Origin: Marsupella aquatica
Lineage: Eukaryota; Plantae; Marchantiophyta
DNA length: 64,000 nucleotides
Reading direction: 5' to 3'
Assembly: GCA_973895155.1 (NCBI GenBank)
Contig: OZ316898.1
Span: 312,751 to 376,750 of the forward strand
Below are positions 16,258 through 59,336 of the stretch, in pieces (the first letter of the stretch is position 1; each line of letters begins with the position of its first letter). The translations under genes and the position numbers were made by a program. Below the pieces are notes generated by a model. The model saw only the letters and a list, made by a program, of their open reading frames with translations. It searched no databases and was not told the origin of the DNA.

Positions 16258-16289
16258 TTATAGTATATATATATGGACTCTTGCTCATT

Positions 16290-31354: not shown

Positions 31355-31712
31355 TGTGACGCCGCCGGTACGGCGGTTAATGAGTGATTCAGTCTAACTG
31401 CGCTCGGCACGCGCGTTAGGTGGGTCTTAGGCCGCTATTATTAGCATAACGACAGTATTTAGGTAATCATTAGGGGTAGGACATCATTAGGCAATAAGGG
31501 GGACTTCAGGTTCGGGCTGGCGGCGGGTCGCTATTCGCACACCCGGGTTATGAGCATGGAGGGGCCCCTCCCTCGGGTCCGTATAACAAACTTAAGGAAG
31601 CGGCCACTGACGCACGCTGACTCAGACCGGCGGAGTGGCCGGTACACCACAAGCGTGAGCGGTTCAACCTATGGGCGTCGAGGAGACGTCGGGGATCGAC
31701 AAGCCCTCAAAG

Positions 31713-31719
31713 TATAAAA
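31713..31719 (+). promoter_or_regulatory. TATA box of the gypsy LTR (also at 41821 and 51929)
   Basis: TATAAAAGGGG lies 358 bp into the LTR, followed by a CT-rich patch, ~108 nt upstream of the LTR-ORF ATG. Confidence 0.75.
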
Positions 31720-31820
31720 GGGGAGCCAACCCTTTGTAGTGCACCAGTCCATCAGTCCGCGCGCCAACTTCGACCCCAGCTCTCTCGTTCTCTCTAGGTC
31801 GCCACTACTATCTCCTCTGA

Positions 31821-34469: not shown

Positions 34470-35381
34470 CGGCGGAGTATGAATAGATTAGGATTAGAAT
34501 TGGCTTGGTCAGGCTCTTGGGGCAGGCACCTGCCTTAGGTACGGCAGCGCTGCCCTGCTGTCCAGCCTGCGTAGATTAGGATCTTCTAATAAGACACAGC
34601 TGTTTTCCGGCCTGACTGTCAGCTTAGTTAGGACCTTGGTCAGCGAATCTTCGGCGGGAGGACACCCCGTTCCTCGGCTCTTAGTATTTAGTGCACCCCT
34701 CGGTAGAGGCAAGGGGGGTTTTTTAGTTTCAGAGTCGGACATCCGCGGGACATGCGGGGAGTCCCGACCTCTGGGAATGACAGAGTACCAAGGGGAGGGG
34801 GTAGGACTAAGCTTGCCGGGCGAGTGCGGAGCCGGGCTCCGTTGTAGTGTGCACCCTTGGCCTTGAACCTGTGCATTCCAGGGCTGTCGTGTCAACTAAG
34901 TGTACGCATATGTTCCCTTTGTAGTAAAAATCCTTTCCCATCATTTTTCCTTCGTGTAAATCGAGATTGTATGCATGTGTGCGCATATGTGTGTGGGTTT
35001 CTCGTATATGGGTGGCAGCGCCGGGCCGAACGCACTACCCGAGACGTGCACAGGGTGCAGCCTACGGGTAAGTGGTTGCGAGCACGGGTTGAGGACCTGT
35101 ATCATCGAATCCGGATCGAAGGCGGACAGCACGAAGGCTTAGAAGCCCTTAAGCCGGGGTCGATCCTGCTATCGACTAAGGTACGTTCTGGCGGCGGAAC
35201 ACAAACCATACCTAGGAGGTGTCCGTATTTAGCAGTATGCGCACTTAGCGCTAGTTTACGAGAATAAGGTGCATTACGTGCTTCCCTTCCTGCCCGAACC
35301 CTCAGATTTACGAGGGATGTGCCCGTCTAAGCTGAAGTCTGAGTTAAGGCCGAAGCCTACGACGTGACATAGCCTTTGTTT

Positions 35382-35398
35382 TGGCGCTAGATGGAGGG
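35382..35398 (+). promoter_or_regulatory. Primer binding site, likely tRNA-Asn (second copy 45490-45506)
   Basis: TGGCGCTAGATGGAGGG is, from recall of plant tRNA-Asn(GUU) ending ...CCCUCCUUCUAGCG-CCA, complementary with one mismatch. It lies 12 nt downstream of the LTR end. Confidence 0.7.
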
Positions 35399-35492
35399 GG
35401 CACTCTACATATCGTAGAGGGGAGACATGTGCATATTCACCTAGGCAGGATACATCAGGACGTAGTACTAACCATTGCATTTATATGAGTAA

Positions 35493-38400: not shown

Positions 38401-41400
38401 ATGAACCAGCCCAACAACCGCCTGAGGCCGAAAACTCGAGACCGAGACATAAAAAGCGAGTCTCATGGGATCCGTCCATTCCGCAATTGGAGGAAGTAAA
38501 CCCCATCCCGAGACCAATCCCGGTCCCACCCATGTACGGAGGGGTTCGGTTAGCTGAGCTTGACGCGAGCCTGGACCCGAGTCTGCGAAACCAGGTTGAA
38601 GTCATCAGGAAGGAGCACTACCGGAAGTACACTATTGGGATGGACAAATCTTTTAACCTGGGCCACGCTTTGACGGGGAAGGCTGAAAAAGCCATCCAAG
38701 CTTTGCTCAAGGAATATGAAGATGTGTTTGCATGGAGTCATCATGATTTAACAGGCGTCTCCCCCGAGTTGGGAGAACACACAATCGATCTGAACCTAGG
38801 AGCCCATGCGGTACGACAGCGACAACGTCGCATGAATCCGAGGTACTCCATCTTAGTGAAGGAGGAAATTGATCGTCTCCTCGCCGCCGATATCATTTAC
38901 CCGGTAATGGCCAGCGACTGGGTCTCTCCCATTGTCATTGTACCAAAGAAGGGAGGTACGGATGGAAAACCTAAGATTCGTATCTGTCAGGACTACCGTA
39001 AGCTGAATGACGCAACCCGAAAAGACCATTACCCATTACCATTCACGGATATGGTTCTAGATATGGTGGCCCGAAATGAAATCTATACATTTCTTGACGG
39101 GTATTCAGGTTATAACCAAATCTGGATTCGTCTCGCGGATCAGCTCAAAACAACGTTCACTACGGAGTGGGGAACGTTCGCATTTCGGAGGATGCCTTTT
39201 GGTCTGTGTAACGCCCCGGCTATGTTTAAGCGCCTTATGATGAATATCTTCCACGATTTCCTACGGGAATTTTTGGAGATATTTATCGATGACTTTGCCA
39301 TCTTCGGAACCATTGCCATGCACCCCGAACACCTACGACGAACGTTGCAACGATGCCGAGATGTTAACCTCAAACTACATCCCGCCAAATGCTTCTTCGG
39401 GGTAGAGGAGGGGGTGTTACTCGGGCATCGTGTGTCCAAACGGGGCATTGAGGTGGACCAAGAGAAAGTTGCGGCCTGGATGGCGGTGGTGTTCCCCTTG
39501 GATCAAAAAGCAGTACGATCCTTCTTGGGCTGCGTAGGGTATTACCGCCGGTTCATTAAAGACTTTGCTAAAATTGCGTTGCCCTTAACTGAGATGATGA
39601 AGAAGGACGCAGCGGTCGAGGAAACACCCCGGAGACGGATTGCTTTTGAGGAACTCCGTAAACGACTCACCACCGCGCCTATCATGGTCACCCCAGACTG
39701 GAATAAGGAGTTCCACGTGTATGTCGATGTGTCAGGGTTCTGTATCGAATCCGTACTTAGTCAGCTAGATGAGGATGGACGTGATCACCCCATCTATTTC
39801 GCTAGCCGTCAACTATTTGCAGCCGAAAAGAATTATTCCCCCACTGATCGAGAAGCTTTGGGAATAATCTACTTGTGTAAAAAGTTCCGACACTATCTGC
39901 TAGGCTACAAGGTCATTTTCCACACGGATCATGATAGCCTGAAGTACATGGTCAACAAAGCGGATGTGACAGGACGGATAGCCCGGTGGGTGCTACTTCT
40001 CCAGGAATTTAATTACAAAGTTTGGGTTCGGCCAGGAAGGGTACACCTCAATGCCGATTTCTTTTCACGACTGGACGGCGTACCAGTCGATCAGCCAATT
40101 GATGATATTTTTCCGGATGAGGAGTTGTTCCACGTAGGGGAAGGGACACCAACGTGGTACGGCTCAATAATCACCTTCCTTTTAACGGGCCGCATCCCTG
40201 ACGGCATCAATCAGGAGGCCGCCGCTGTGTTTTTACGGAAAGCCGGGCCTTACGTCATGATACAGGGTCACCTACATAAGGAAGGTATTAACGGAAAGTT
40301 ACGACGCTGCTTAGAGTATAAGGAGACACTTATCGTGATACGGGCCCTGCATGAAGAAGAAGCTGGAGGCCATTTCGCGGCAGTTACGACAGCCCGAAAG
40401 ATTCTGGACTCGGGGTATTGGTGGCCTACGTTGCATCGGGATGTACAGCGCTTCATTAAGGGCTGTGACTTGTGTCAACGAGCGGGGGCCCCGAGGCGGG
40501 CTCATCATCACCCGCTCACATCTGTGCTTCCATTGGCACCATTCGAAAAATGGGGGATTGATTATATCGGACCGTTCACTCCCGTTACCCGAAGGCGAAG
40601 GTGCAGATACATCCTATTAGCTATTGATTACTCCACCAAATGGGTCGAAGCGCGGGCTACGGTAAAGGACGACGCCGCAACTAGTGCCAGATTCTTATAC
40701 GAACAGATTTTCACCCGATTCGGACCGCCCTTAGAATTGGTAAGCGACCGTGGAACCCACTTCCTCAATGACACCGTAGCCCAGCTTACGGAGCGTTACC
40801 TAGTCAAGCACCGCAAGACTACCCCATATCATCCTAAAGCCAACGGGATGGCGGAGAGAGCAAATGGTATCATTGGGAAGATCCTCAACAAAACTGTAGC
40901 TGCGCACAAAACGGATTGGGATGATAAGTTGTACGCGGCGGTGTACTCGTATAATCTAGCTTACAAAACTACTACGAGTCATAGCCCGTACTTTCTGGTA
41001 TTCGACCAACATTTGTTGGTGCCCGTCGAATTTGAAGTGCACACTCCACGGGTCAGCATTCGGGATCGCTTACCTGAATCTGAAAGTCTGTCAGACCGAG
41101 CTTATCAGATTGAAGCCTTGGAAGAAGCACGGCTACTGGCAGCTCGACACACCGTGAAGAAACAGACAACTTCAAAGAAGCAGCATGACAAAGGACTACG
41201 GAGGGTCGACGTCGTGGCAGGCGATCTAGTCCTTCTGTACGATAGTAGGTACATGCAGTTTCCAGGGAAGCTGCATACCCGGTGGTTGGGGCCCTTCCTT
41301 GTCAATCAGATCTACCGAAACGGATCTTTGGAGCTTGCGACGTATGCCGGCGATTTACTCCCCACGCGAATCAGCTACGATCGTGTAAAAAAGTACCACC

Positions 41401-41495
41401 ATCAAGATGACGACGCCGATAGCGATGTTCGCGAGGACGCTTCACAATTAAGCAGGGAGCTATGTGACGCCGCCGGTACGGCGGTTAATGAGTGA
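35493..41495 (+). CDS. Ty3/gypsy Gag-Pol polyprotein, copy 1 (2000 aa, single ORF)
   Basis: Capsid-like N-terminus and three CCHC knuckles (CSKC..H..C, CYNC..H..C, CQVC..H..C). Protease LVDGGA; RT RICQDYRKLN, RMPFGLCNAP, FIDD; RNase H; integrase HHCC, DDE and WLGPF. No chromodomain. The stop lies inside the next LTR. Confidence 0.97.
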   Translation: MPVTRSQAAYLRRLTSERESATTTSSDSSGSEDSQSSRRMNIPPGSSGSGSTGPAAVPPPSPPPPPPPMAAAPPVARAAQAPPQISQRSRFHYRPFKGRHGDDPDEWLDEFEATAKANGEDVIKLTVLPGVMRGEAHPWYNSLPPGTTWAQFQAALLQEFRAIGSEQRSLLKIGQLRMGKKESLRKFIQKFQKLAAKIRPRPGDALQLTWFLHGLPTNMQFWVRQNNPISMQAAIACAETYRESTYNSRRSQRARRRKGKYETFSDSDSESDDERKKKRKKKKKHHSTSSSSETESSSDSASSIGSSTSSSSGSDLESESQSKKKKRRVKKEGKIKPRARRTIPDPKAAEADKLNKITDRLKALSVHLAEKPVEKKKPSEIRAHAWCSKCFQSGHVVQECPRWKNRVHQVELDDVDNPGPESESTEYFFEDPPDSVYQISTVGPRNLAGRTAYPYPSNGRSFQVISNPSIPPKPGIWRSPVCYNCEKPGHFARECTEPRRQGDGRGTPLCQVCKTEAHSMANCPLVIAARTSAARPAQAGPVTSDAVVQMIAVEWQDDNTEWVNLVDVTEHPNPLDEAECYRVSTRAERKEEKTEEKRRKKQDTTPVQPAINIPPEKDDDYRRDDPKLFFPRIEELVKKQLEAYEAREYQKAIDKDIKAAETARRQEQEKQDKQEEAKQQPTKETKEDYDIKEDVKSCPVTATVGQLLQNNPQYRRQLRELLMGRRRRRLPRVGSADCNMICEDLGAPDILIEINNCTIKMVLVDGGAGVNIMTEETSVKLGYLTYQPTARAIRLANGARVLPLGTLTRVLTLVGGVEFYLNFLVMRPVRPSSYPVLLGRPWLYGGRVVTDWGKKELRFGEPTVRVSWAMDDYQGETPQGPEEYDSETSEEEELNMIELISSLSEEDVFGVEATRETHLLNYPRAAIESTPSTSTVGDEETHEQLVETEDTAPAKQGAVATPSISEPCNHEPAQQPPEAENSRPRHKKRVSWDPSIPQLEEVNPIPRPIPVPPMYGGVRLAELDASLDPSLRNQVEVIRKEHYRKYTIGMDKSFNLGHALTGKAEKAIQALLKEYEDVFAWSHHDLTGVSPELGEHTIDLNLGAHAVRQRQRRMNPRYSILVKEEIDRLLAADIIYPVMASDWVSPIVIVPKKGGTDGKPKIRICQDYRKLNDATRKDHYPLPFTDMVLDMVARNEIYTFLDGYSGYNQIWIRLADQLKTTFTTEWGTFAFRRMPFGLCNAPAMFKRLMMNIFHDFLREFLEIFIDDFAIFGTIAMHPEHLRRTLQRCRDVNLKLHPAKCFFGVEEGVLLGHRVSKRGIEVDQEKVAAWMAVVFPLDQKAVRSFLGCVGYYRRFIKDFAKIALPLTEMMKKDAAVEETPRRRIAFEELRKRLTTAPIMVTPDWNKEFHVYVDVSGFCIESVLSQLDEDGRDHPIYFASRQLFAAEKNYSPTDREALGIIYLCKKFRHYLLGYKVIFHTDHDSLKYMVNKADVTGRIARWVLLLQEFNYKVWVRPGRVHLNADFFSRLDGVPVDQPIDDIFPDEELFHVGEGTPTWYGSIITFLLTGRIPDGINQEAAAVFLRKAGPYVMIQGHLHKEGINGKLRRCLEYKETLIVIRALHEEEAGGHFAAVTTARKILDSGYWWPTLHRDVQRFIKGCDLCQRAGAPRRAHHHPLTSVLPLAPFEKWGIDYIGPFTPVTRRRRCRYILLAIDYSTKWVEARATVKDDAATSARFLYEQIFTRFGPPLELVSDRGTHFLNDTVAQLTERYLVKHRKTTPYHPKANGMAERANGIIGKILNKTVAAHKTDWDDKLYAAVYSYNLAYKTTTSHSPYFLVFDQHLLVPVEFEVHTPRVSIRDRLPESESLSDRAYQIEALEEARLLAARHTVKKQTTSKKQHDKGLRRVDVVAGDLVLLYDSRYMQFPGKLHTRWLGPFLVNQIYRNGSLELATYAGDLLPTRISYDRVKKYHHQDDDADSDVREDASQLSRELCDAAGTAVNE
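41449..41462 (+). promoter_or_regulatory. Polypurine tract of the gypsy element (second copy 51557-51570)
   Basis: TAAGCAGGGAGCTA immediately precedes the LTR start TGTGACG and lies within the pol coding sequence. Confidence 0.7.
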
Positions 41496-44400
41496 TTCAG
41501 TCTAACTGCGCTCGGCACGCGCGTTAGGTGGGTCTTAGGCCGCTATTATTAGCATAACGATAGTATTTAGATAATCATTAGGGGTAGGACATCATTAGGC
41601 AATAAGGGGGACTTCAGGTTCGGGCTGGCGGCGGGTCGCTATTCGCACACCCGGGTTATGAGCATGGAGGGGCCCCTCCCTCGGGTCCGTATAACGAACT
41701 TAAGGAAGCGGCCACTGACGCACGCTGACTCAGACCGGCGGAGTGGCCGGTACACCACAAGCGTGAGCGGTTCAACCTATGGGCGTCGAGGAGACGTCGG
41801 GGATCGACAAGCCCTCAAAGTATAAAAGGGGAGCCAACCCTTTGTAGTGCACCAGTCCATCAGTCCGCGCGCCAGCTTCGACCCCAGCTCTCTCGTTCTC
41901 TCTAGGTCGCCACTACTATCTCCTCTGAATGTCGCACACGATCCTCTCCAGCTCGGCCATTCGATTCTGGACGCAGTTCCTATCTACCGGAAGGCACTTG
42001 GCCGATTCATTGAAACACGCCAACCCGCGCCGATACGAGATCGAATGCGAATACGAGAGAGCCATCCGCCTAGCAGGACGACACCACTACGTCCTTAACT
42101 TTGACTACCCGTCTCAGAGCGAGCTTTACCGACCAGCTGAGGTATCTGGGTACTTCTTTGACAGAGACAAATATATCGGGTTCTGGGAAGCATTGCTTCG
42201 GCTTCCGGACGAGGTCTTCAATATCCCGGGTACAATCGACCTGCAGCGACATCACTTCGACCACATCCCTGCCCAGGTTCGGGCAGTCATTAACGGCGAG
42301 TCCAGTACCAACCGTTCGACAAGGGCGTCCGTACTCGCTTCGGAGAACTTCTACCAGCACTTACAGAGCTTCATGGGAACTCGGCCATCAACCAACATGA
42401 CCAACTCAGCCGGACTCGGACCCGTACCCGTACCCGTACCCGTGCCCATGCAACCTCAGCTTCAGCTTCAGCCTCAGCCGCAGCCTAGCCAAACCCCACC
42501 ACCTATCACCCAGCCAGCACAGGTACGCTCCGTCATCAACGCTGTGGATCTTAGCGATGACGACGAGGCTACCCCACCCTTGACCAGGCGGCCCAGAGGA
42601 ACAAGCGCTCGGGGGGCCGACACTATACCGTCCCCACCCCCTGCTCTGACCCCAGGAGCGGCCCCAGCAGACAACATGGTGACCGTGGCCGCCCCGGGCC
42701 CGTTACCAACCGCAGTGGCACTCCCCAGGCCCGATCGGGAGGATGGGGAAGTATCACCTTCCCCGAGTCAGTCACGGGGAAAGAAGAGAAAGGAATCCGC
42801 CAGTGCATCCGGGTTACCGTTAGCCACGGTAGCTGTAGCCAAGGTAATGATGCATCGCATGGGGGAAAACGTTCACAGCAACATCCTCCATCCCAAGCAT
42901 GCGGTGTACCTGAAGACTCAGGGATTTGAGCACCTCGCCTCTCTCCCCTGGAACACTTGCAGGTACTACGGGGAGGACATGACAGAATTCGTCAAGAATT
43001 ATGACGACGTACGTCAACAGACTCGGCTGCGGGGAAGGAATATGTCCCTCACAGAAGAACGGCTCAAGATGATCTTCGGGTTACCCGAAGGTGACCATCG
43101 AGTCGAATCACGGGCTCCCGGGGGCAAGGGGGCCAAGTACCAATCTTCAAGTTTTCCCTCAGAGGGATCAGTAGACAACGGGTTCGTGATGAGGACCTGC
43201 CTCATGCCCGAGATAGCTGAGCGGCTGGAGTTCCAGAGGTACGCTCTCCACTTGATGGAACCCCGGGGGGAGATCTCCGCCGCCCAGGTCATCCAGGTCG
43301 AGAACTATCGACCTAGGAAGTGGGCGTCGTACTTCGCTAAGAAATTCCATGAAGAGATGGAGCGGCGAAGGAAGACGCTGTACATTGACGGGAAGCCGTA
43401 TTTCGCTAGCCACATCGAAATCATTCTTGAGTGGTATGCCCGGTTTGATCGACGAACCCTTCCCCGCATCAACGTTACAAAGCTGGTCCCAGCTAGGTGG
43501 GTTTTTCCGGCATTGGAGAGACGACCCCAACCCGAGGCCCGAAGTCCAGTGGACACGCCAGCTTCACCCACCCCACCTCCACAAATAGCTGTAATCGTAA
43601 CCGAGGAGGCGTCGGAGGGGTTGGTCGTCGCAACCGTTGATGCGACCCAACTAGCCGGGCTAAGTACAGAAGTTGGTACGGCAGAGGTCTTACCCGAACC
43701 CGGGTCTCCCAAGGACCCGCCGGTGGCAATTCCGGAGAACCGGACATCGCTGCAGGAGGATACTCCGGCCCCTTCCAACGTTATGTCCCCAGGGCTGGAC
43801 GTCACTGCCCCGGCCCCTGCGCGTGTTGATGTCTGCCCGTGCCCAAATCCGGACAGACACAACTTGGACCACCCGGAACTCTTCGTACAGGGTACGTTTC
43901 TGAACGGGCTTCTGGGAGATTTCTCTCATCAAATTGCCCGGGATACCGGGGAGTTCATGGCTCGGAAGGTAGCCTGTTTCTTCAATCAGGAGTTGGTTGC
44001 CGCCGTAAAGGCAGGGCGGGCCCAGTCGGAGGCCCTTCAGAGGATAGAGCGGTACCGGGTGGAGTCCGTGTACCTAAAGAACGAAGTGGCGGCTCAAGAG
44101 GCTGAGCTTATGCAACTACGACCCAAGGTTGCAGCCGCCGATGAGTTGTTAGCAAAGGCATACGCTCTTACCGCCCTAGCTGAATAGGCCAAAGCTGGGA
44201 ACGAGGCCGAGATTACATGACTCCGGAACCAGATTGACAGTTTGAAGAAACAAGCTGTCACCTGGCAGAAAGACCTGGAGGAGGCCGAGGAGCGAGCCCA
44301 GCGGGACGCGACGGAGATAGCCACACTGCAGGCTGAGATGGCGCGGCTCCAAACCGAGGCCGAGAAGCAGGACCAGCTGGCGAGTAAACTGGCGAGCGAC

Positions 44401-45477
44401 GCCCAGCAGCTGGAGGAGGCATGTCAGGAGGCAGTAGAGGAGACGGACGCGGCGAGGCGAGAGAACGAATCTCTGCTGGACCAGGTCCAGCTCCTCAAAG
44501 CGGACAATGACAGGCTTCGAAGGCAGCGGGATGGCCGTTCCCATTCGGGCGGCTCTGGCAAGCGTGCCAGGCATTAGCGGCGGAGTATGAATAGATTAGG
44601 ATTAGAATTGGCTTGGTCAGGCTCTTGGGACAGGCACCTGCCTTAGGTACGGCAGCGCTGCCCTGCTGTCCAGCCTGCGTAGATTAGGATCTTCTAATAA
44701 GACACAGCTGTTTTCCGGCCTGACTGTCAGCTTAGTTAGGACCTTGGTCAGCGAATCTTCGGCGGGAGGACACCCCGTTCCTCGGCTCTTAGTATTTAGT
44801 GCACCCCTCGGTAGAGGCAAGGGGGGTTTTTTAGTTTCAGAGTCGGACATCCGCGGGACATGCGGGGAGTCCCGACCTCTGGGAATGATAGAGTACCAAG
44901 GGGAGGGGGTAGGACTAAGCTTGCCGGGCGAGTGCGGAGCCGGGCTCCGTTGTAGTGTGCACCCTTGGCCTTGAACCTGTGCATTCCAGGGCTGTCGTGT
45001 CAACTAAGTGTACGCATATGTTCCCTTTGTAGTAAAAATCCTTTCCCATCATTTTTCCTTCGTGTAAATCGAGATTGTATGCATGTGTGCGCATATGTGT
45101 GTGGGTTTCTCGTATATGGGTGGCAGCGCCGGGCCGAACGCACTACCCGAGACGTGCACAGGGTGCAGCCTACGGGTAAGTGGTTGCGAGCACGGGTTGA
45201 GGACCTGTATCATCGAATCCGGATCGAAGGCGGACAGCACGAAGGCTTAGAAGCCCTTAAGCCGGGGTCGATCCTGCTATCGACTAAGGTACGTTCCGGC
45301 GGCGGAACACAAACCATACCTAGGAGGTGTCCGTATTTAGCAGTATGCGCACTTAGCGCTAGTTTACGAGAATAAGGTGCATTACGTGCTTCCCTTCCTG
45401 CCCGAACCCTCAGATTTACGAGGGATGTGCCCGTCTAAGCTGAAGTCTGAGTTAAGGCCGAAGCCTACGACGTGACA
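41463..45477 (+). repeat. Gypsy LTR2 (shared middle LTR, chimeric)
   Basis: Preceded by a PPT and followed by a PBS; 4015 bp. Confidence 0.97.
41929..44577 (+). pseudogene. LTR-encoded ORF, copy 2 (752 aa open, then two stops)
   Basis: Stops TAG 44185 and TGA 44218 are shared with copy 1. Confidence 0.9.
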
Positions 45478-45600
45478 TAGCCTTTGTTTTGGCGCTAGAT
45501 GGAGGGGGCACTCTACATATCGTAGAGGGGAGACATGTGCATATTCACCTAGGCAGGATACATCAGGACGTAGTACTAACCATTGCATTTATATGAGTAA

Positions 45601-48600: not shown

Positions 48601-51600
48601 GAAGTAAACCCCATCCCGAGACCAATCCCGGTCCCACCCATGTACGGAGGGGTTCGGTTAGCTGAGCTTGACGCGAGCCTGGACCCGAGTCTGCGAAACC
48701 AGGTTGAAGTCATCAGGAAGGAGCACTACCGGAAGTACACTATTGGGATGGACAAATCTTTTAACCTGGGCCACGCTTTGACGGGGAAGGCTGAAAAAGC
48801 CATCCAAGCTTTGCTCAAGGAATATGAAGATGTGTTTGCATGGAGTCATCATGATTTAACAGGCGTCTCCCCCGAGTTGGGAGAACACACAATCGATCTG
48901 AACCTAGGAGCCCATGCGGTACGACAGCGACAACGTCGCATGAATCCGAGGTACTCCATCTTAGTGAAGGAGGAAATTGATCGTCTCCTCGCCGCCGATA
49001 TCATTTACCCGGTAATGGCCAGCGACTGGGTCTCTCCCATTGTCATTGTACCAAAGAAGGGAGGTACGGATGGAAAACCTAAGATTCGTATCTGTCAGGA
49101 CTACCGTAAGCTCAATGACGCAACCCGAAAAGACCATTACCCATTACCATTCACGGATATGGTTCTAGATATGGTGGCCCGAAATGAAATCTATACATTT
49201 CTTGACGGGTATTCAGGTTATAACCAAATCTGGATTCGTCTCGCGGATCAGCTCAAAACAACGTTCACTACGGAGTGGGGAACGTTCGCATTTCGGAGGA
49301 TGCCTTTTGGTCTGTGTAACGCCCCGGCTATGTTTAAGCGCCTTATGATGAATATCTTCCACGATTTCCTACGGGAATTTTTGGAGATATTTATCGATGA
49401 CTTTGCCATCTTCGGAACCATTGCCATGCACCCCGAACACCTACGACGAACGTTGCAACGATGCCGAGATGTTAACCTCAAACTACATCCCGCCAAATGC
49501 TTCTTCGGGGTAGAGGAGGGGGTGTTACTCGGGCATCGTGTGTCCAAACGGGGCATTGAGGTGGACCAAGAGAAAGTTGCGGCCTGGATGGCGGTGGTGT
49601 TCCCCTTGGATCAAAAAGCAGTACGATCCTTCTTGGGCTGCGTAGGGTATTACCGCCGGTTCATTAAAGACTTTGCTAAAATTGCGTTGCCCTTAACTGA
49701 GATGATGAAGAAGGACGCAGCGGTCGAGGAAACACCCCGGAGACGGATTGCTTTTGAGGAACTCCGTAAACGACTCACCACCGCGCCTATCATGGTCACC
49801 CCAGACTGGAATAAGGAGTTCCACGTGTATGTCGATGTGTCAGGGTTCTGTATCGAATCCGTACTTAGTCAGCTAGATGAGGATGGACGTGATCACCCCA
49901 TCTATTTCGCTAGCCGTCAACTATTTGCAGCCGAAAAGAATTATTCCCCCACTGATCGAGAAGCTTTGGGAATAATCTACTTGTGTAAAAAGTTCCGACA
50001 CTATCTGCTAGGCTACAAGGTCATTTTCCACACAGATCATGATAGCCTGAAGTACATGGTCAACAAAGCGGATGTGACAGGACGGATAGCCCGGTGGGTG
50101 CTACTTCTCCAGGAATTTAATTACAAAGTTTGGGTTCGGCCAGGAAGGGTACACCTCAATGCCGATTTCTTTTCACGACTGGACGGCGTACCAGTCGATC
50201 AGCCAATTGATGATATTTTTCCGGATGAGGAGTTGTTCCACGTAGGGGAAGGGACACCAACGTGGTACGGCTCAATAATCACCTTCCTTTTAACGGGCCG
50301 CATCCCTGACGGCATCAATCAGGAGGCCGCCGCTGTGTTTTTACGGAAAGCCGGGCCTTACGTCATGATACAGGGTCACCTACATAAGGAAGGTATTAAC
50401 GGAAAGTTACGACGCTGCTTAGAGTATAAGGAGACACTTATCGTGATACGGGCCCTGCATGAAGAAGAAGCTGGAGGCCATTTCGCGGCAGTTACGACAG
50501 CCCGAAAGATTCTGGACTCGGGGTATTGGTGGCCTACGTTGCATCGGGATGTACAGCGCTTCATTAAGGGCTGTGACTTGTGTCAACGAGCGGGGGCCCC
50601 GAGGCGGGCTCATCATCACCCGCTCACATCTGTGCTTCCATTGGCACCATTCGAAAAATGGGGGATTGATTATATCGGACCGTTCACTCCCGTTACCCGA
50701 AGGCGAAGGTGCAGATACATCCTATTAGCTATTGATTACTCCACCAAATGGGTCGAAGCGCGGGCTACGGTAAAGGACGACGCCGCAACTAGTGCCAGAT
50801 TCTTATACGAACAGATTTTCACCCGATTCGGACCGCCCTTAGAATTGGTAAGCGACCGTGGAACCCACTTCCTCAATGACACCGTAGCCCAGCTTACGGA
50901 GCGTTACCTAGTCAAGCACCGCAAGACTACCCCATATCATCCTAAAGCCAACGGGATGGCGGAGAGAGCAAATGGTATCATTGGGAAGATCCTCAACAAA
51001 ACTGTAGCTGCGCACAAAACGGATTGGGATGATAAGTTGTACGCGGCGGTGTACTCGTATAATCTAGCTTACAAAACTACTACGAGTCATAGCCCGTACT
51101 TTCTGGTATTCGGCCAACATTTGTTGGTGCCCGTCGAATTTGAAGTGCACACTCCACGGGTCAGCATTCGGGATCGCTTACCTGAATCTGAAAGTCTGTC
51201 AGACCGAGCTTATCAGATTGAAGCCTTGGAAGAAGCACGGCTACTGGCAGCTCGACACACCGTGAAGAAACAGACAACTTCAAAGAAGCAGCATGACAAA
51301 GGACTACGGAGGGTCGACGTCGTGGCAGGCGATCTAGTCCTTCTGTACGATAGTAGGTACATGCAGTTTCCAGGGAAGCTGCATACCCGGTGGTTGGGGC
51401 CCTTCCTTGTCAATCAGATCTACCGAAACGGATCTTTGGAGCTTGCGACGTATGCCGGCGATTTACTCCCCACGCGAATCAGCTACGATCGTGTAAAAAA
51501 GTACCACCATCAAGATGACGACGCCGATAGCGATGTTCGCGAGGACGCTTCACAATTAAGCAGGGAGCTATGTGACGCCGCCGGTACGGCGGTTAATGAG

Positions 51601-51603
51601 TGA
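45601..51603 (+). CDS. Ty3/gypsy Gag-Pol polyprotein, copy 2 (2000 aa)
   Basis: Same domains as copy 1. About ten nucleotide differences read by eye (e.g. G>E, S>P, Q>R, M>T, T>A, A>V, D>G). Confidence 0.97.
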   Translation: MPVTRSQAAYLRRLTSERESATTTSSDSSGSEDSQSSRRMNIPPGSSESGSTGPAAVPPPPPPPPPPPMAAAPPVARAAQAPPQISQRSRFHYRPFKGRHGDDPDEWLDEFEATAKANGEDVIKLTVLPGVMRGEAHPWYNSLPPGTTWAQFQAALLQEFRAIGSEQRSLLKIGQLRMGKKESLRKFIQKFQKLAAKIRPRPGDALQLTWFLHGLPTNMQFWVRQNNPISMQAAIACAETYRESTYNSRRSQRARRRKGKYETFSDSDSESDDERKKKRKKKKKHHSTSSSSETESSSDSASSIGSSTSSSSGSDLESESRSKKKKRRVKKEGKIKPRARRTIPDPKAAEADKLNKITDRLKALSVHLAEKPVEKKKPSEIRAHAWCSKCFQSGHVVQECPRWKNRVHQVELDDVDNPGPESESTEYFFEDPPDSVYQISTVGPRNLAGRTAYPYPSNGRSFQVISNPSIPPKPGIWRSPVCYNCEKPGHFARECTEPRRQGDGRGTPLCQVCKTEAHSTANCPLVIAARTSAARPAQAGPVTSDAVVQMIAVEWQDDNTEWVNLVDVAEHPNPLDEAECYRVSTRAERKEEKTEEKRRKKQDTTPVQPAINIPPEKDDDYRRDDPKLFFPRIEELVKKQLEAYEAREYQKAIDKDIKVAETARRQEQEKQDKQEEAKQQPTKETKEDYDIKEDVKSCPVTATVGQLLQNNPQYRRQLRELLMGRRRRRLPRVGSADCNMICEDLGAPDILIEINNCTIKMVLVDGGAGVNIMTEETSVKLGYLTYQPTARAIRLANGARVLPLGTLTRVLTLVGGVEFYLNFLVMRPVRPSSYPVLLGRPWLYGGRVVTDWGKKELRFGEPTVRVSWAMDDYQGETPQGPEEYDSETSEEEELNMIELISSLSEEDVFGVEATRETHLLNYPRAAIESTPSTSTVGDEETHEQLVETEDTAPAKQGAVATPSISEPCNHEPAQQPPEAENSRPRHKKRVSWDPSIPQLEEVNPIPRPIPVPPMYGGVRLAELDASLDPSLRNQVEVIRKEHYRKYTIGMDKSFNLGHALTGKAEKAIQALLKEYEDVFAWSHHDLTGVSPELGEHTIDLNLGAHAVRQRQRRMNPRYSILVKEEIDRLLAADIIYPVMASDWVSPIVIVPKKGGTDGKPKIRICQDYRKLNDATRKDHYPLPFTDMVLDMVARNEIYTFLDGYSGYNQIWIRLADQLKTTFTTEWGTFAFRRMPFGLCNAPAMFKRLMMNIFHDFLREFLEIFIDDFAIFGTIAMHPEHLRRTLQRCRDVNLKLHPAKCFFGVEEGVLLGHRVSKRGIEVDQEKVAAWMAVVFPLDQKAVRSFLGCVGYYRRFIKDFAKIALPLTEMMKKDAAVEETPRRRIAFEELRKRLTTAPIMVTPDWNKEFHVYVDVSGFCIESVLSQLDEDGRDHPIYFASRQLFAAEKNYSPTDREALGIIYLCKKFRHYLLGYKVIFHTDHDSLKYMVNKADVTGRIARWVLLLQEFNYKVWVRPGRVHLNADFFSRLDGVPVDQPIDDIFPDEELFHVGEGTPTWYGSIITFLLTGRIPDGINQEAAAVFLRKAGPYVMIQGHLHKEGINGKLRRCLEYKETLIVIRALHEEEAGGHFAAVTTARKILDSGYWWPTLHRDVQRFIKGCDLCQRAGAPRRAHHHPLTSVLPLAPFEKWGIDYIGPFTPVTRRRRCRYILLAIDYSTKWVEARATVKDDAATSARFLYEQIFTRFGPPLELVSDRGTHFLNDTVAQLTERYLVKHRKTTPYHPKANGMAERANGIIGKILNKTVAAHKTDWDDKLYAAVYSYNLAYKTTTSHSPYFLVFGQHLLVPVEFEVHTPRVSIRDRLPESESLSDRAYQIEALEEARLLAARHTVKKQTTSKKQHDKGLRRVDVVAGDLVLLYDSRYMQFPGKLHTRWLGPFLVNQIYRNGSLELATYAGDLLPTRISYDRVKKYHHQDDDADSDVREDASQLSRELCDAAGTAVNE

Positions 51604-54600
51604 TTCAGTCTAACTGCGCTCGGCACGCGCGTTAGGTGGGTCTTAGGCCGCTATTATTAGCATAACGATAGTATTTAGATAATCATTAGGGGTAGGACAT
51701 CATTAGGCAATAAGGGGGACTTCAGGTTCGGGCTGGCGGCGGGTCGCTATTCGCACACCCGGGTTATGAGCATGGAGGGGCCCCTCCCTCGGGTCCGTAT
51801 AACGAACTTAAGGAAGCGGCCACTGACGCACGCTGACTCAGACCGGCGGAGTGGCCGGTACACCACAAGCGTGAGCGGTTCAACCTATGGGCGTCGAGGA
51901 GACGTCGGGGATCGACAAGCCCTCAAAGTATAAAAGGGGAGCCAACCCTTTGTAGTGCACCAGTCCATCAGTCCGCGCGCCAGCTTCGACCCCAGCTCTC
52001 TCGTTCTCTCTAGGTCGCCACTACTATCTCCTCTGAATGTCGCACACGATCCTCTCCAGCTCGGCCATTCGATTCTGGACGCAGTTCCTATCTACCGGAA
52101 GGCACTTGGCCGATTCATTGAAACACGCCAACCCGCGCCGATACGAGATCGAATGCGAATACGAGAGAGCCATCCGCCTAGCAGGACGACACCACTACGT
52201 CCTTAACTTTGACTACCCGTCTCAGAGCGAGCTTTACCGACCAGCTGAGGTATCTGGGTACTTCTTTGACGGAGACAAATATATCGGGTTCTGGGAAGCA
52301 TTGCTTCGGCTTCCGGACGAGGTCTTCAATATCCCGGGTACAATCGACCTGCAGCGACATCACTTCGACCACATCCCTGCCCAGGTTCGGGCAGTCATTA
52401 ACGGCGAGTCCAGTACCAACCGTTCGACAAGGGCGTCCGCACTCGCTTCGGAGAACTTCTACCAGCACCTACAGAGCTTCATGGGAACTCGGCCATCAAC
52501 CAACATGACCAACTCAGCCGGACCCGGACCCGTACCCGTACCCGTACCCGTGCCCATGCAACCTCAGCTTCAGCTTCAGCCTCAGCCGCAGCCTAGCCAA
52601 ACCCCACCACCTATCACCCAGCCAGCACAGGTACGCTCCGTCATCAACGCTGTGGATCTTAGCGATGACGACAAGGCTACCCCACCCTTGACCAGGCGGC
52701 CCAGAGGAACAAGCGCTCGGGGGGCCGACACTATACCATCCCCACCCCTTGCTCTGACCCCAGGAGCGGCCCCAGCAGACAACATGGTGACCGTGGCCAC
52801 CCCGGGCCCGTTACCAACCGCAGTGGCACTCCCCAGGCCCGATCGGGAGGATGGGGAAGTATCACCTTCCCCGAGTCAGTCACGGGGAAAGAAGAGAAAG
52901 GAATCCGCCAGTGCATCCGGGTTACCGTTAGCCACGGTAGCCGTAGCCAAGGTAACGATGCATCGCATGGGGGAAAACGTTCACAGCAACATCCTCCATC
53001 CCAAGCATGCGGTGTACCTGAAGACTCAGGGATTTGAGCACCTCGCCTCTCTCCCCTGGAACACTTGCAGGTACTACGGGGAGGACATGACAGAATTCGT
53101 CAAGAATTATGATGACGTACGTCAACAGACTCGGCTGCGGGGAAGGAATATGTCCCTCACAGAAGAACGGCTCAAGATGATCTTCGGGTTACCCGAAGGT
53201 GACCATCGAGTCGAATCACGGGCTCCCGGGGGCAAGGGGGCCAAGTACCAATCTTCAAGTTTTCCCTCAGAGGGATCAGTAGACAACGGGTTCGTGATGA
53301 GGACCTGCCTCATGCCCGAGATAGCTGAGCGGCTGGAGTTCCAGAGGTACGCTCTCCACTTGATGGAACCCCGGGGGGAGATCTCCGCCGCCCAGGTCAT
53401 CCAGGTCGAGAACTATCGACCTAGGAAGTGGGCGTCGTACTTCGCTAAGAAATTCCATGAAGAGATGGAGCGGCGAAGGAAGACGCTGTACATTGGCGGG
53501 AAGCCGTATTTCGCTAGCCACATCGAAATCATTCTTGAGTGGTATGCCCGGTTTGATCGACGAACCCTTCCCCGCATCAACGTTACAAAGCTGGTCCCAG
53601 CTAGGTGGGTTTTTCCGGCATTGGAGAGACGACCCCAACCCGAGGCCCGAAGTCCAGTGGACACGCCAGCTTCACCCACCCCACCTCCACAAATAGCTGT
53701 AATCGTAACCGAGGAGGCGCCGGAGGGGTTGGTCGTCGCAACCGTTGATGCGACCCAACTAGCCGGGCTAAGTACAGAAGTTGGTACGGCAGAGGTCTTA
53801 CCCGAACCCGGGTCTCCCAAGGACCCGCCGGTGGCAATTCCGGAGAACCGGACATCGCTGCAGGAGGATACTCCGGCCCCTTCCAACGTTATGTCCCCAG
53901 GGCTGGACGTCACTGCCCCGGCCCCTGCGCGTGTTGATGTCTGCCCGTGCCCAAATCCGGACAGGCACAACTTGGACCACCCGGAACTCTTCGTACAGGG
54001 TACGTTTCTGAACGGGCTTCTGGGAGATTTCTCTCATCAAATTGCCCGGGATACCGGGGAGTTCATGGCTCGGAAGGTAGCCTGTTTCTTCAATCAGGAG
54101 TTGGTTGCCGCCGTAAAGGCAGGGCGGGCCCAGTCGGAGGCCCTTCAGAGGATAGAGCGGTACCGGGTGGAGTCCGTGTACCTAAAGAACGAAGTGGCGG
54201 CTCAAGAGGCTGAGCTTATGCAACTACGACCCAAGGTTGCAGCCGCCGATGAGTTGTTAGCAAAGGCATACGTTCTTACCGCCCTAGCCGAACAGGCCAA
54301 AGCTGGGAACGAGGCCGAGATTACACGACTCCGGAACCAGATTGACAGTTTGAAGAAACAAGCTGTCACCTGGCAGAAAGACCTGGAGGAGGCCGAGGAG
54401 CGAGCCCAGCGGGACGCGACGGAGATAGCCACACTGCAGGCCGAGATGACGCGGCTCCAAACCGAGGCCGAGAAGCAGGACCAGCTGGCGAGTAAACTGG
54501 CGAGCGACGCCCAGCAGCTGGAGGAGGCATGTCAGGAGGCAGTAGAGGAGACGGACGCGTCGAGGCGAGAGAACGAATCTCTGCTGGACCAGGTCCAGCT

Positions 54601-55585
54601 CCTCAAAGCGGACAATGACAGGCTTCGAAGGCAGCGGGATGGCCGTTCCCATTCGGGCGGCTCTGGCAAGCGTGCCAGGCATTAGCGGCGGAGTATGAAT
54701 AGATTAGGATTAGAATTGGCTTGGTCAGGCTCTTGGGACAGGCACCTGCCTTAGGTACGGCAGCGCTGCCCTGCTGTCCAGCCTGCGTAGATTAGGATCT
54801 TCTAATAAGACACAGCTGTTTTCCGGCCTGACTGTCAGCTTAGTTAGGACCTTGGTCAGCGAATCTTCGGCGGGAGGACACCCCGTTCCTGGGCTCTTAG
54901 TATTTAGTGCACCCCTCGGTAGAGGCAGGGGGGGTTTTTTAGTTTCAGAGTCGGACATCCGCGGGACATGCGGGGAGTCCCGACCTCTGGGAATGACAGA
55001 GTACCAAGGGGAGGGGGTAGGACTAAGCTTGCCGGGCGAGTGCGGAGCCGGGCTCCGTTGTAGTGTGCACCCTTGGCCTTGAACCTGTGCATTCCAGGGC
55101 TGTCGTGTCAACTAAGTGTACGCATATGTTCCCTTTGTAGTAAAAATCCTTTCCCATCATTTTTCCTTCGTGTAAATCGAGATTGTATGCATGTGTGCGC
55201 ATATGTGTGTGGGTTTCTCGTATATGGGTGGCAGCGCCGGGCCGAACGCACTACCCGAGACGTGCACAGGGTGCAGCCTGCGGGTAAGTGGGTGCGAGCA
55301 CGGGTTGAGGACCTGTATCATCGAATCTGGATCGAAGGCGGACAGCACGAAGGCTTAGAAGCCCTTAAGCCGGGGTCGATCCTGCTATCGACTAAGGTAC
55401 GTTCCGGCGGCGGAACACAAACCATACCTAGGAGGTGTCCGTATTTAGCAGTATGCGCACTTAGCGCTAGTTTACGAGAATAAGGTGCATTACGTGCTTC
55501 CCTTCCTGCCCGAACCCTCAGATTTACGAGGGATGTGCCCGTCTAAGCTGAAGTCTGAGTTAAGGCCGAAGCCTACGACGTGACA
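51571..55585 (+). repeat. Gypsy LTR3 (3' LTR, contains the intact ORF)
   Basis: Ends CGTGACA followed by the TSD GCCTT. Confidence 0.97.
52037..54685 (+). CDS. LTR-encoded 882-aa protein of unknown function (N-terminal globular region, P/Q-rich linker, basic NLS-like motif, transposon-accessory-like domain, C-terminal coiled coil)
   Basis: Uninterrupted 2649-nt ORF wholly inside the LTR. Contains RGKKRK and GKRARH basic motifs, TEFVKNY...RLRGRNMSLTEERLKMIFGLP, and a heptad-rich E/Q/A/L C-terminal ~170 aa. Confidence 0.85.
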   Translation: MSHTILSSSAIRFWTQFLSTGRHLADSLKHANPRRYEIECEYERAIRLAGRHHYVLNFDYPSQSELYRPAEVSGYFFDGDKYIGFWEALLRLPDEVFNIPGTIDLQRHHFDHIPAQVRAVINGESSTNRSTRASALASENFYQHLQSFMGTRPSTNMTNSAGPGPVPVPVPVPMQPQLQLQPQPQPSQTPPPITQPAQVRSVINAVDLSDDDKATPPLTRRPRGTSARGADTIPSPPLALTPGAAPADNMVTVATPGPLPTAVALPRPDREDGEVSPSPSQSRGKKRKESASASGLPLATVAVAKVTMHRMGENVHSNILHPKHAVYLKTQGFEHLASLPWNTCRYYGEDMTEFVKNYDDVRQQTRLRGRNMSLTEERLKMIFGLPEGDHRVESRAPGGKGAKYQSSSFPSEGSVDNGFVMRTCLMPEIAERLEFQRYALHLMEPRGEISAAQVIQVENYRPRKWASYFAKKFHEEMERRRKTLYIGGKPYFASHIEIILEWYARFDRRTLPRINVTKLVPARWVFPALERRPQPEARSPVDTPASPTPPPQIAVIVTEEAPEGLVVATVDATQLAGLSTEVGTAEVLPEPGSPKDPPVAIPENRTSLQEDTPAPSNVMSPGLDVTAPAPARVDVCPCPNPDRHNLDHPELFVQGTFLNGLLGDFSHQIARDTGEFMARKVACFFNQELVAAVKAGRAQSEALQRIERYRVESVYLKNEVAAQEAELMQLRPKVAAADELLAKAYVLTALAEQAKAGNEAEITRLRNQIDSLKKQAVTWQKDLEEAEERAQRDATEIATLQAEMTRLQTEAEKQDQLASKLASDAQQLEEACQEAVEETDASRRENESLLDQVQLLKADNDRLRRQRDGRSHSGGSGKRARH

Positions 55586-57936
55586 GCCTTACCAAGATCC
55601 TTCATCCTGAATTCAACACTCAATTTCGCCTTGAGACTGTCAACCTCAGATTGATCTTTAGCCACAATCAGCATGTCATCCACATAGATCACCAGAATGA
55701 TGAAACCAAACACATCATTCTTGACTGATTTTGTATACATACAAGGATCATACACCATCCTTGTAAAACCTTGAGCAAGCATGAAATCATCAAACCGCTT
55801 GTTCCATTGTCTGGGAGACTGCTTCAATCCATACAAGGACTTGAGCAATCTGCAAACTAAGTTCTCTTGGCCCTTCTTCATAAAGCCTAGTGGTTGTCTC
55901 ATGAAGATCAACTCTTCCAAATTGCCATAGAGAAAAGCAGTAACAACATCCATCTGATCCATCACCAGACCAAAAAACACAACAAGCTGACACAAGATCC
56001 GAATTGTGGAATACTTAGCCACCGGTGAAAAGACCTCATTGTAGTCCACTCCTTTCTCCTGAGTGAACCCCTTGGCAACAAGCCTTGCCTTGTAGATCTT
56101 ATCTCCACCCTCTGAAGGACTGTCCTTCAACTTGTAAATCCACTTACTGTCCACCACTTGCTGACCTCTTGGAAGCTCCACCAGCTCCCATGTCTTGTTG
56201 TCACTCAAAGATTGCAACTCCCTTTGCATTGCTGCATTCCACTCATGCTTCTGCTTTGAAGCACAAGCCTCACTGTACGAAGAAGGCTCTCCTTCTTCCA
56301 AGATCAAAGCCATGTCATCATCATCAGGTGCAATGTCAATATCATCTAGCTTAGATGAGTCTGCCCATTGATCATACCTGGTAGGAGCTCTAGTAGAACG
56401 ACTGGAAGTTCTTCTAGTAGATGACTCAGGCTGATCTGCTGCTGCTGCTGGTTGAATTTGAGGTACCCCAGCAACAATCTGCTCCTCTTGTTCCATCACA
56501 GGAACCAGCTCCAAGCCCGGAGCTTCTCCATCTCTCCTATCATGAACTGCATCATGACTAATCTCCCCCTCAACCCGGTCCGGGATGGGAGATTTCCCCT
56601 TGTCAGTCTGGGAGTCCTGAGAACTCTCCCCCTCCTTTGATGATCTGGACTCATTAAAGGACACATCTCTACTGACAATTAACTTACAGGTTACTGGATC
56701 CCATAACCTATAACCCTCCACACCTTTCTGATAGCCAAGGAAAATGCACTTCTTCGACTTGGACTCCAGCTTGGATCGAAGCTGAGAAGGTGTAAGCACA
56801 TAAGCATCACATCCAAAAATCCTCAGATGTGAGTAATCTGCTGGACGCCCGTACCTCATTTCAAATGGCGTCTTGAATCCAATAGAACTGGATGGAGAAA
56901 AATTTACCAAATAAGCTACAGTGTTGACAGCTTCAGCCCAAAACTCATGTGGTAAGCATGATTGACTCAACATACTCCTCGAGCGGTCCAATAGTGTTTG
57001 GTTGAGTCTCTCAAAAACACCATTCTGCTGAGGAGTATAATTTGTTGTGAGATGGTGGGTTATCCCCTGCTCCTTACAATACGTTCCAAATTCCCTGGAA
57101 CTGTATTCACCGCCATTATCCGATCGTAGATATCTCACCTTATTACCAGTCTGATTCTCAACTTGGGCTTTCCACTCCTTAAAAGTGGCAAAAACATTAG
57201 ACTTACTGTGTAGAAAATATATCCACACATACCTTGAGTAATCGTCTATGAACGTGACATAGTATAATCGTCCAGAATGTGAGAGAGTAGGGGCTGGACC
57301 CCACACATCACTATGTACATATTCAAGTACCTCCTTGCTGGTGTGAGTTCCAACTCCGAAGGGTTTCCTGTGCTGCTTCCCTAGCACATAGTGCTCACAA
57401 AATTCCAACTTACAAGATTGCAAATTAGAAAGTAATCCTTTCTTCTGAAGAATAACCAAACCTTTTTCACTCATGTGACCCAAACGGAAGTGCCACAGCC
57501 GGGCCGTCTCCTCATGAGATAAGGTTATATTGGCTTCATCACAAACTACACAGCCCTCCAAAACGTATAGATTGCTATGTCTCTTTCCCTTCAATACAAC
57601 TTTAGTATCAGTTGAAACCTGAAGGACACCATTAGCAGAACTCCACTGATGGCCATTTGCTTCTAAAACTCCAAGTGAAATGAGATTTTTCATCATGGTG
57701 GGAATGTGTCTCACATTCCTCAACGTTCTTACAGCACCATCAAACATCTGAAATCTTACAGATCCAAGTCCAACAACTTGACATGGGATTCCATTTCCCA
57801 TCAACACTGACCCATTGGAAACCGTGTAAGAACTGAAAAAATCTCTCCTAGAGCAAATGTGAAAAGTACATGCACTATCTAGAATCCAGTCATCACTCCC
57901 TGGATTTGACACTACGTTGAGAACATAACCTTGACA
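55586..57936 (-). pseudogene. Copia A pol, N-terminal part (protease, GAG-pre-integrase, integrase, RT), interrupted by the gypsy
   Basis: WILDSAC, LWHFRLGHMS, VHSDVWGP, LRSDNGGEY, PQQNG, YKARLVAKG, QMDVVTAFL, SLYGLKQ and IYVDDML. Confidence 0.95.
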
Positions 57937-58156
57937 TCACAATATGTCATCATCATCGAGTAAATCTATCTCATGCGAGCTCGATGCCGCGTTAGCAGAT
58001 GCAGTAGGGACCTTTACTCGACAATCCCTTTTCATGTGGCCAGGCTTGCCACAATTCCAACATGCAAGAGGCTTCCTCTCTTGCGATTTCCCTCTAGATT
58101 TAGATCTCCCCCGTGATGTAGATCTAAACCTGTTCTGTCCATTTGAGCGCTGCGCT
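57937..58156 (-). pseudogene. Residual C-terminus of copia A gag (RS-rich segment and zinc knuckle)
   Basis: RSTSRGRSKSRGKS...CWNCGKPGHMKRDC begins directly after the PBS. Confidence 0.9.
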
Positions 58157-58170
58157 GCTCTGATACCACT

Positions 58171-59210: not shown

Positions 59211-59336
59211 TAGTTGTACCTAACCACATAGTTGTACCTAATCATGTAGTTGTACCTAACCACATAGTTGTACCTAATCACGTAGTTGTACCTAACCACG
59301 TAGTTGTACCAACCCACGTTGTTGTACCAACCACGT
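59211..59336. repeat. 18-bp tandem array (7 copies) in U3 of the copia B LTR
   Basis: TAGTTGTACCTAA(C/T)CA(C/T)(A/G) repeated. Confidence 0.92.

Follow-up and report, generated by a model that had tools for sequence, protein, structure and literature searches.

Athila elements, a group of plant Ty3/gypsy retrotransposons, are characterized in REXdb by a 5-bp target site duplication (TSD), a length of 7-23 kb and a primer-binding site (PBS) of the tRNA-Asp (72%) or tRNA-Asn (12%) type (PMC6317226 supplement 3; here and below, what is attributed to a paper refers to its accessible portions). Their additional open reading frame (ORF) is internal, between pol and the 3' long terminal repeat (LTR), and ORF2 of Arabidopsis has been reported as a spliced subgenomic mRNA (PMC7197481). 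In the accessible portions of PMC7264820, PMC11728184, PMC11963269, PMC3485330 and PMC1142308, extra ORFs are placed in the internal region or none is described in the LTR. Accessory ORFs that lie in the LTR or overlap it, and are copied to both ends of the element, are those of retroviruses, such as sag of mouse mammary tumour virus, nef of the human immunodeficiency virus and foamy virus bel. These LTR-resident ORFs are located in U3, the unique 3' region of the LTR. We analysed a stretch of 64,000 nt from the liverwort Marsupella aquatica (contig OZ316898.1, positions 312,751 to 376,750; hereafter, the window) and found in it an Athila-like Ty3/gypsy element whose LTR contains an 882-codon sense ORF (protein P0001). 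It resembles the retroviral cases in this placement and differs from them in that the proteins are unrelated and in that, in a plant retrotransposon, the LTR holds a whole, longer gene together with its putative promoter.

The element is a tandem array of three LTRs, each of exactly 4015 nt and with TGTGAC...GTGACA ends, which alternate with two 6093-nt internal regions, both with an intact gag-pol (Table 1); a single element would measure 14.1 kb. The boundaries of the array are secure, because the 5-bp GCCTT flanks it as a whole and both flanks align to one and the same point (~60445) in a paralogous copia copy of the window. The LTR limits that the initial annotation had drawn from the TSD, the TG/CA ends, the PBS plus the polypurine tract (PPT) were borne out. 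The PPT falls within the last codons of pol, whose stop is 33 nt into the LTR. The ORF starts 108 nt after a TATAAAA box, ends 900 nt before the end of LTR3 and takes up about two-thirds of the LTR; when the bases of the LTR were shuffled 1000 times, the length of the longest open frame was 170 codons on average and never above 331. As had also been annotated, the frame is open in LTR3 and broken by C>T nonsense changes in LTR1 (three) and LTR2 (two); every stop results from one T in place of the C found in LTR3, and indels are absent. That this is a real and conserved gene, resident in the LTR and carried twice by each element, is supported by the comparisons presented below.

To find out how the ORF is arranged in related elements, we collected 48 loci by pol alignment, of which 8 close ones reach beyond the pol stop; L004 is represented by the ORF end, the LTR and the PBS, and L003 and L013 were too short for a layout to be assigned. 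The 3' signal (a GTTCGCG..CAC motif, the PPT and TG) occurs once per element in seven loci as well as in the window element. In L001, L002, L005 and L007, whose pol is 53-57% identical to that of the window element, this signal and the TG come directly after pol, and the ORF begins 500-660 nt further on (466 in the window). Moreover, the sequence at the TG start in L001 and L002 is an inverted repeat of the LTR end that precedes the PBS on the same contig, and because of this correspondence the ORF of these two loci is placed inside the LTR. Judged by the order of these signals, the ORF-in-LTR layout recurs in four relatives. A second layout is found in L006, L008 and L004, where the same 3' signal comes after the ORF. 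The LTRs of this group are short (991 nt in L006, 1086 nt in L004 and ~350 nt, with an uncertain end, in L008), and in L006 and L008 the homologous ORF sits between pol and the short LTR (0.35-1.1 kb when L004 is included), in the manner of Athila. The ORFs of the relatives, the L004 fragment aside, are homologous to the window core (HHalign 97.2%, E 2.9e-11; L008 by hidden Markov model, E 4.6e-10). A degenerate copy of the 3' signal and PPT, which resembles a central PPT, was also present right after pol in L006 (3730-3787), L013 (2282-2337) and L003 (3075-3132), and in L006 and L013 it precedes the ATG by ~435-450 nt. The PBS of the relatives corresponds to what we take to be tRNA-Asp, while that of the window element is presumably tRNA-Asn-like. 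It counts against the overall reading given below that the relatives are partial metagenome contigs, none of which shows two complete LTRs.

On the basis of the RT-RH-INT region (reverse transcriptase, RNase H and integrase), we built a tree with IQ-TREE from 22 pol rows (a subset of 57), rooted on three angiosperm Athila-like proteins. The five ORF-in-LTR elements formed one clade (97/98) nested among the ORF-internal ones, with the L006/L004 group as its sister and L008 further out; because of this nesting, the LTR-resident state is quite probably derived from the ORF-internal one. The simplest route would be that plus-strand priming moved upstream, to the purine tract of the post-pol signal, by which promoter and ORF would become part of the LTR and would stand ahead of the old LTR, now the tail. 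The 900-nt tail is comparable in length to the entire LTRs of L006 and L004. Other results argue against so simple a history. The ORF tree conflicts with the pol tree, as the L002 and L007 ORFs join those of L006 and L013 (98 in the Shimodaira-Hasegawa-like approximate likelihood-ratio test) and leave the window ORF outside; given this disagreement, at least one exchange of the cassette is probable, and the sequences do not prove that capture happened a single time. Furthermore, no remnant of the old PPT was scored in the tail with a PPT matrix. A purine run at ~55003-55019 was considered as such a leftover and rejected, since it was outside the top four matrix sites and aligned poorly.

As to classification, the order protease, RT, RNase H and integrase, the paired LTRs with TG..CA ends, the TSD, the PBS and the PPT are those of Ty3/gypsy elements. 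No chromodomain or second RNase H was matched in gag-pol (Pfam scan, E<=0.1; one RNase H region), which together with the 5-bp TSD, the 14.1 kb and the presumed PBS type agrees with Athila. Further features in common with Athila are the single gag-pol, the gap between LTR and PBS, and the additional sense-strand ORF downstream of pol. Phygy, Selgy and TatI, which have 4-bp TSDs, PBSs of the tRNA-Trp or tRNA-Ala type and a short length, TatI also with an additional archaeal-type RNase H (aRH) (PMC6317226 supplement 3), were rejected because of the 5-bp TSD and the 14.1 kb. Tat (TatII, TatIII, Ogre and Retand) was rejected because pol has no aRH; Tat lineages without aRH, Z1 and Z2, do exist (PMC10508981). 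For some REXdb lineages both a 5' and a 3' forward extra ORF are recorded, as in TatII (23% and 26%; PMC6317226 supplement 3). In the tree, which held no Tat, Phygy, Selgy or Tat-Z references, the angiosperm Athila-like pols were a clade of their own, apart from the bryophyte-type group.

The ORF of L008 weakly matches Transposase_32 (PF20167; E 2.5e-4, 21.4 bits for a cut-off of 45), and the Atlas leads were PF03078 and PF20167, at 0.81-0.82; at the gathering score, neither PF03078 (ATHILA ORF-1) nor PF20167 was matched in P0001 or in any of its 43 homologs. In contrast to Athila, the window ORF comes after the PPT, is contained in the LTR and is duplicated, and P0001 has an extra N-terminal domain. 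We consider it likely, from sequence comparison, that the window ORF is the Athila-type 3' sense ORF relocated into the LTR. Other elements with LTRs of 2.5-5 kb, some with an extra ORF, are Ogre, Retrosat2/RIRE3 and Diaspora; unlike in the window element, ORF0 of Retrosat2 lies upstream of gag-pol and is considered separately from the LTR (PMC3485330), and Diaspora, where pol is closely followed by the PPT and a 2.5-kb LTR, has no ORF reported in the accessible portion of PMC1142308. No earlier description of an ORF-in-LTR layout in plant retrotransposons was found in the openly searchable literature. Accordingly, the suggestion of an undescribed architecture stands for the layout and not for the ORF itself, which is akin to the Athila-type 3' ORF: the element is an Athila-like architectural variant, common to a clade, in which the accessory gene is now part of the LTR.

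The three local copies of the ORF differ at 25 sites (8 synonymous, 14 non-synonymous and 3 nonsense), and these differences represent drift of this copy after insertion, not selection on the family. Over the whole LTR there are 34 differing sites between LTR1 and LTR3 and 13 between LTR1 and LTR2, and the two internal regions differ at 10. LTR2 is a hybrid: through LTR position 649 it equals LTR3 at 6 of 6 informative sites and from 701 to 4015 it mostly equals LTR1, which puts the crossover between positions 649 and 701, i.e. at about 42111-42163. The pattern suggests that the tandem array probably arose after one insertion, through unequal LTR-LTR recombination. Given this hybrid pattern, two of the stops (codons 753 and 764) would have arisen once, in LTR1 before the duplication, and the remaining one later.

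Conservation of the protein was first apparent with a sensitive search: a full HMMER search with the core (aa 296-540; E<=0.001) of 1.84 billion representatives gave 43 homologs, while word-based searches gave none for the core and one for alignment A3. Of 20 clusters looked up, eight had a representative from the leafy liverwort Calypogeia fissa, the others being without organism name. One homolog, P0203 (906 aa), aligned end to end with 30% identity over aa 13-881 and has the same N-terminal domain, basic patch, core, coiled coil and basic tail as P0001. The N-terminal domain was detected in 8 of 58 homolog and cluster proteins (E<=0.01), and Pfam yielded weak coiled-coil matches and nothing else on P0001. 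The nearest named pol relatives were from Riccia (53%) and Marchantia (46%), and two Riccia sorocarpa gene models (P0094 and P0114) have, behind pol, a sequence homologous to the core domain (E 1e-9 and 1e-5), so that the accessory ORF is also present in complex thalloid liverworts. The initial annotation had looked to related mosses for the family; its named relatives are instead liverworts (Calypogeia, Riccia and Marchantia). No relatives were found among viral contigs. On this sequence evidence the gene formed by the ORF is conserved. Coverage of the ORF region by public contigs from four runs was complete, and among 12 rows (of 40) of the cross-contig variant tally, the LTR indels (6 of 6) were all outside the ORF. 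Against this, 5 of 10 ORF substitutions were synonymous, versus 17 of 26 in pol, and with so few rows and that proportion the listed variants do not show strong constraint on the ORF. An LTR-to-internal contig depth of ~4.6:1 (run X1) was considered as a sign of many solo LTRs and not used, since depth is not copy number.

The core was modelled with confidence (Table 1), and its sole clear match in the PDB was VANC21 bound to DNA (Foldseek probability 0.99, E 0.013). VIA-align to VANC21 (9LNK) gave Z 8.0, which is middling by the scale of the tool itself, with a root-mean-square deviation of 4.2 over 210 aligned residues and an identity of 10%; the next match among 48,161 chains had Z 2.5. A fold search of BFVD returned nothing at E<=0.001. 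The N-terminal domain had no clear fold match (best Z 5.3 among many helical matches; Atlas score 0.77). VANC21 (PDB 9LNJ/9LNK) is encoded by the transposon VANDAL21, within which it recognises a short motif, and it removes methylation (PMC5735166). Like P0001, it is a transposon-encoded accessory protein with a globular domain plus a coiled coil (PMC13547354); unlike P0001, which is encoded by a retrotransposon LTR and accompanied by no motif array, it belongs to a Mutator DNA transposon, and VANC is characterized as restricted to dicots (PMC13547354 section 10). VANC and the host MAIN/PMD proteins have a common fold, and VANC and the Athila domain have both been modelled as coiled-coil oligomers, with no link between the Athila domain and the VANC fold drawn in the accessible portions of the two reports (PMC13547354; bioRxiv 10.1101/2024.09.27.615353). 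PMD-C is structurally similar to the DUF1985 domain of VANC, and PMD-A, of Ogre, is encoded by a retrotransposon (bioRxiv 2024.09.27.615353); in Retand, TRP28 and Smc-type coiled coils occur together in the extra ORFs (PMC11963269). The ORFs of PMD-A and Retand differ from that of the window in being internal, those of Retand being antisense in elements with LTRs of 315-1194 bp. P0001 matched neither DUF1985 nor PF10536 or PF04195.

VANC-like systems lead one to expect family-specific motifs, and such motifs, which recall the VANC targets (PMC5735166), were seen in several relatives. In seven of nine relatives there was a k-mer excess that, at some k, was reached by 0-1 of 100 shuffles; the strongest motif was TCCGGA in L001, L002, L005 and L007, AGCGCTA in L006, AAACCGC in L004 and L013 and AATTGG in L008, all of them candidate binding motifs. 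Over whole contigs of the first four, TCCGGA/CCGGA is in extreme excess, with up to 50 CCGGA per kb. In the window, GTATTTAG, similar to the YAGTATTAY of VANC21 and present three times per LTR in non-coding DNA, was put down to chance, as some 7-mer was found in such triples in 100 of 100 shuffles.

Taking these data together, we tentatively propose, at a little short of an even chance, that the VANC/PMD-like core binds short family-specific motifs, that the coiled coil oligomerises, and that the complex would lower DNA methylation or Polycomb marks in trans. The overall reading, an Athila-like Ty3/gypsy element with an accessory gene captured into the LTR and a predicted nuclear DNA-binding anti-silencing factor as its product, has in our estimate a probability of about 0.5. 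Several points weigh against its functional part. There was no sequence-level match to VANC21, the PDB sequence search giving matches of the coiled-coil type; function does not follow from the fold, because the host MAIN/MAIL proteins share it; TCCGGA of L001, L002, L005 and L007 is dense in coding DNA too, unlike the non-coding targets of VANC21; and no repeated motif reached significance in the window element (the best, GTGCA, with 12 copies, was reached by 7 of 100 shuffles).

The same layout could serve another nuclear role, the protein being a transcriptional transactivator, as is Tas of foamy viruses, or a tether to chromatin or a scaffold by which integration is guided. We regard this as possible, with a lower probability than the role proposed above. 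The fold common to VANC and host MAIN/MAIL shows at most binding to DNA or chromatin (PMC13547354; bioRxiv 2024.09.27.615353), and the missing motif array of the window element, the extra N-terminal domain with no clear fold match and the length of the coiled coil would all suit it; nevertheless, the functions reported for the fold are motif-directed opposition to DNA methylation or Polycomb (PMC13547354; bioRxiv 2024.09.27.615353; PMC5735166), and the excess of family-specific motifs in several relatives also favours an anti-silencing factor.

The place of the ORF with respect to the start of the genomic RNA follows from how the LTR would have grown: an upstream move of plus-strand priming would put the ORF in U3 and not in R/U5 (the repeated and unique 5' regions). 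The TATAAAA box of the window is likely to be the promoter of the ORF itself. In L008, a TATA-like box of its own stands at -107 of the internal ORF (versus -108 in the window), so that a TATA ahead of the ORF need not be a genomic promoter. Furthermore, a TATAAA motif is found 83-99 nt from the LTR end in three short-LTR relatives (the end being uncertain in L008) and 152 nt from it in L001. We therefore lean, with rather more than even confidence, towards an ORF in U3 and a genomic RNA that would still start in the 900-nt tail. The promoter-ORF cassette would then be present once in the genomic RNA and would be copied to both LTRs by reverse transcription, and each LTR, solo LTRs included, would be a self-contained gene. 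The absence in L002 of an end-proximal TATA like that of L001 (164 nt examined) speaks against this, as does the fact that in the window the sole canonical TATAAAA of the 4015-nt LTR is the one before the ORF, with TATTTAG at -144 near the LTR end.

The latter observation would fit the placement in R/U5 given by the initial annotation. There, the TATA at 51929 would be the sole promoter of the element and the ORF would be part of an R of 3 kb (or of U5), the majority of transcripts ending at the LTR polyadenylation site as ORF mRNA and those reading through serving as genomic RNA, with strong-stop DNA of up to 3.6 kb. The CT-rich tract after the box, the resemblance of a U-rich tract at ~55130-55200 to a 3'-end region and the lack of an old-PPT remnant in the tail are in keeping with this scheme. 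We find it unlikely and the R/U5 placement not supported in the form given: L006 and L008 carry the ORF between pol and a short LTR, the box of L008 being equally far from the ATG; in the short-LTR relatives, whose TATAAA is close to the end of the LTR, the genomic RNA has to begin downstream of the ORF; and the tail is as long as the whole LTR of those relatives. Finally, an env-like membrane protein, suggested by the sense ORF in the 'env-like' position downstream of pol (PMC7264820), or a decaying passenger from a host gene, suggested by the neutral-like differences among the three local copies, is very improbable and largely excluded, because P0001 has NLS-like basic patches (NLS, nuclear localization signal) and no transmembrane helix (maximum Kyte-Doolittle 19-residue hydropathy 1.15), full-length open homologs exist at 70% divergence, homologs adjoin pol in several elements and the local drift is the decay of a single copy after its insertion.

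Table 1. Features of the tandem element and of its LTR-resident ORF (window coordinates; aa positions are those of P0001)
Feature	Position	Strand	Remarks
Left TSD GCCTT	31350..31354	+	Within copia RT gene
LTR1, 4015 nt	31355..35369	+	ORF copy 31821-34469, stops at codons 538, 753, 764
Internal region 1	35370..41462	+	PBS 35382-35399; gag-pol from 35493, stop at 41495 inside LTR2
LTR2, hybrid, 4015 nt	41463..45477	+	ORF copy stopped at codons 753, 764
PBS of internal region 2	45490..45507	+	Starts 12 nt past terminal CA of LTR
gag-pol, 2000 aa	45601..51603	+	gag, zinc knuckle, protease, RT, RNase H, integrase
Conserved 3' signal	51535..51570	+	GTTCGCG..CAC motif and PPT ending GGGAGCTA, immediately before LTR3; one per element
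LTR3, 4015 nt, ORF open	51571..55585	+	
TATAAAA box	51929..51935	+	108 nt ahead of ORF; CT-rich tract after box
ORF (protein P0001), 882 aa	52037..54685	+	N-terminal domain, low-complexity linker, basic patch, VANC/PMD-like core, linker, coiled coil
N-terminal helical domain, conserved	52058..52399	+	aa 8-121
Basic patch RGKKRK, NLS-like	52883..52900	+	aa 283-288; similar patch ahead of core in P0203 and P0135
Core domain	52922..53656	+	aa 296-540; 43 homologs; model pLDDT (predicted local distance difference test) 87.6
C-terminal coiled-coil region	54194..54634	+	~aa 720-866; weak coiled-coil Pfam matches
Non-coding LTR tail, 900 nt	54686..55585	+	U-rich tract ~55130-55200; weak TATA-like TATTTAG 144 nt from LTR end
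Right TSD GCCTT	55586..55590	+	

The remaining features of the window can be summarized briefly. The 12-nt spacer between LTR end and PBS (45478-45489) contains GCCTT, the same as the TSD, in both internal regions, probably by coincidence. The observed/expected CpG ratio is 0.87-0.96 in the element (31355-55585), compared with ~0.5 in the sequence on either side. A copia RT gene was the site of insertion, and at least two more diverged copia-related pieces, one of them inverted, are close by (the copia DNA as a whole being at 29933-31354, 55586-64000 and 19477-20767). A pentatricopeptide repeat gene of the PLS type with E, E+ and DYW motifs, spread over two ORFs, is at 4374-5896, and local tandem or near-tandem repeats are at 7700-8154, 14568-18688 and 22331-22572. 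Together with the nearest pol relatives, the DYW-type gene agrees with a bryophyte host, probably a liverwort outside Marchantiopsida, a class in which RNA editing is not known.

At its broadest, the finding would mean that in a bryophyte Athila-like clade the LTR became a gene complete in itself, with a sequence-specific anti-silencing protein of the VANC fold as its product, that every LTR, solo ones included, supplies protection of the family in trans, and that the 'env-like' ORF of Athila is an ancient anti-silencing factor whose fold was used independently of the VANDAL elements of dicots; in this full form the interpretation is doubtful. The fold match ties the long-unexplained Athila-type extra ORF to the VANC/PMD proteins, and whether the motif is bound and silencing lost in a family-specific way is open to a concrete test in bryophytes, which are transformable. 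In the annotation of plant transposable elements, LTRs are treated as non-coding, and here five or more related elements have a complete conserved gene within the LTR. The apparent intermediates suggest that an LTR can quadruple through a shift of the plus-strand primer. If true, the formation of solo LTRs, by which the host usually removes retrotransposons, would leave the gene behind.

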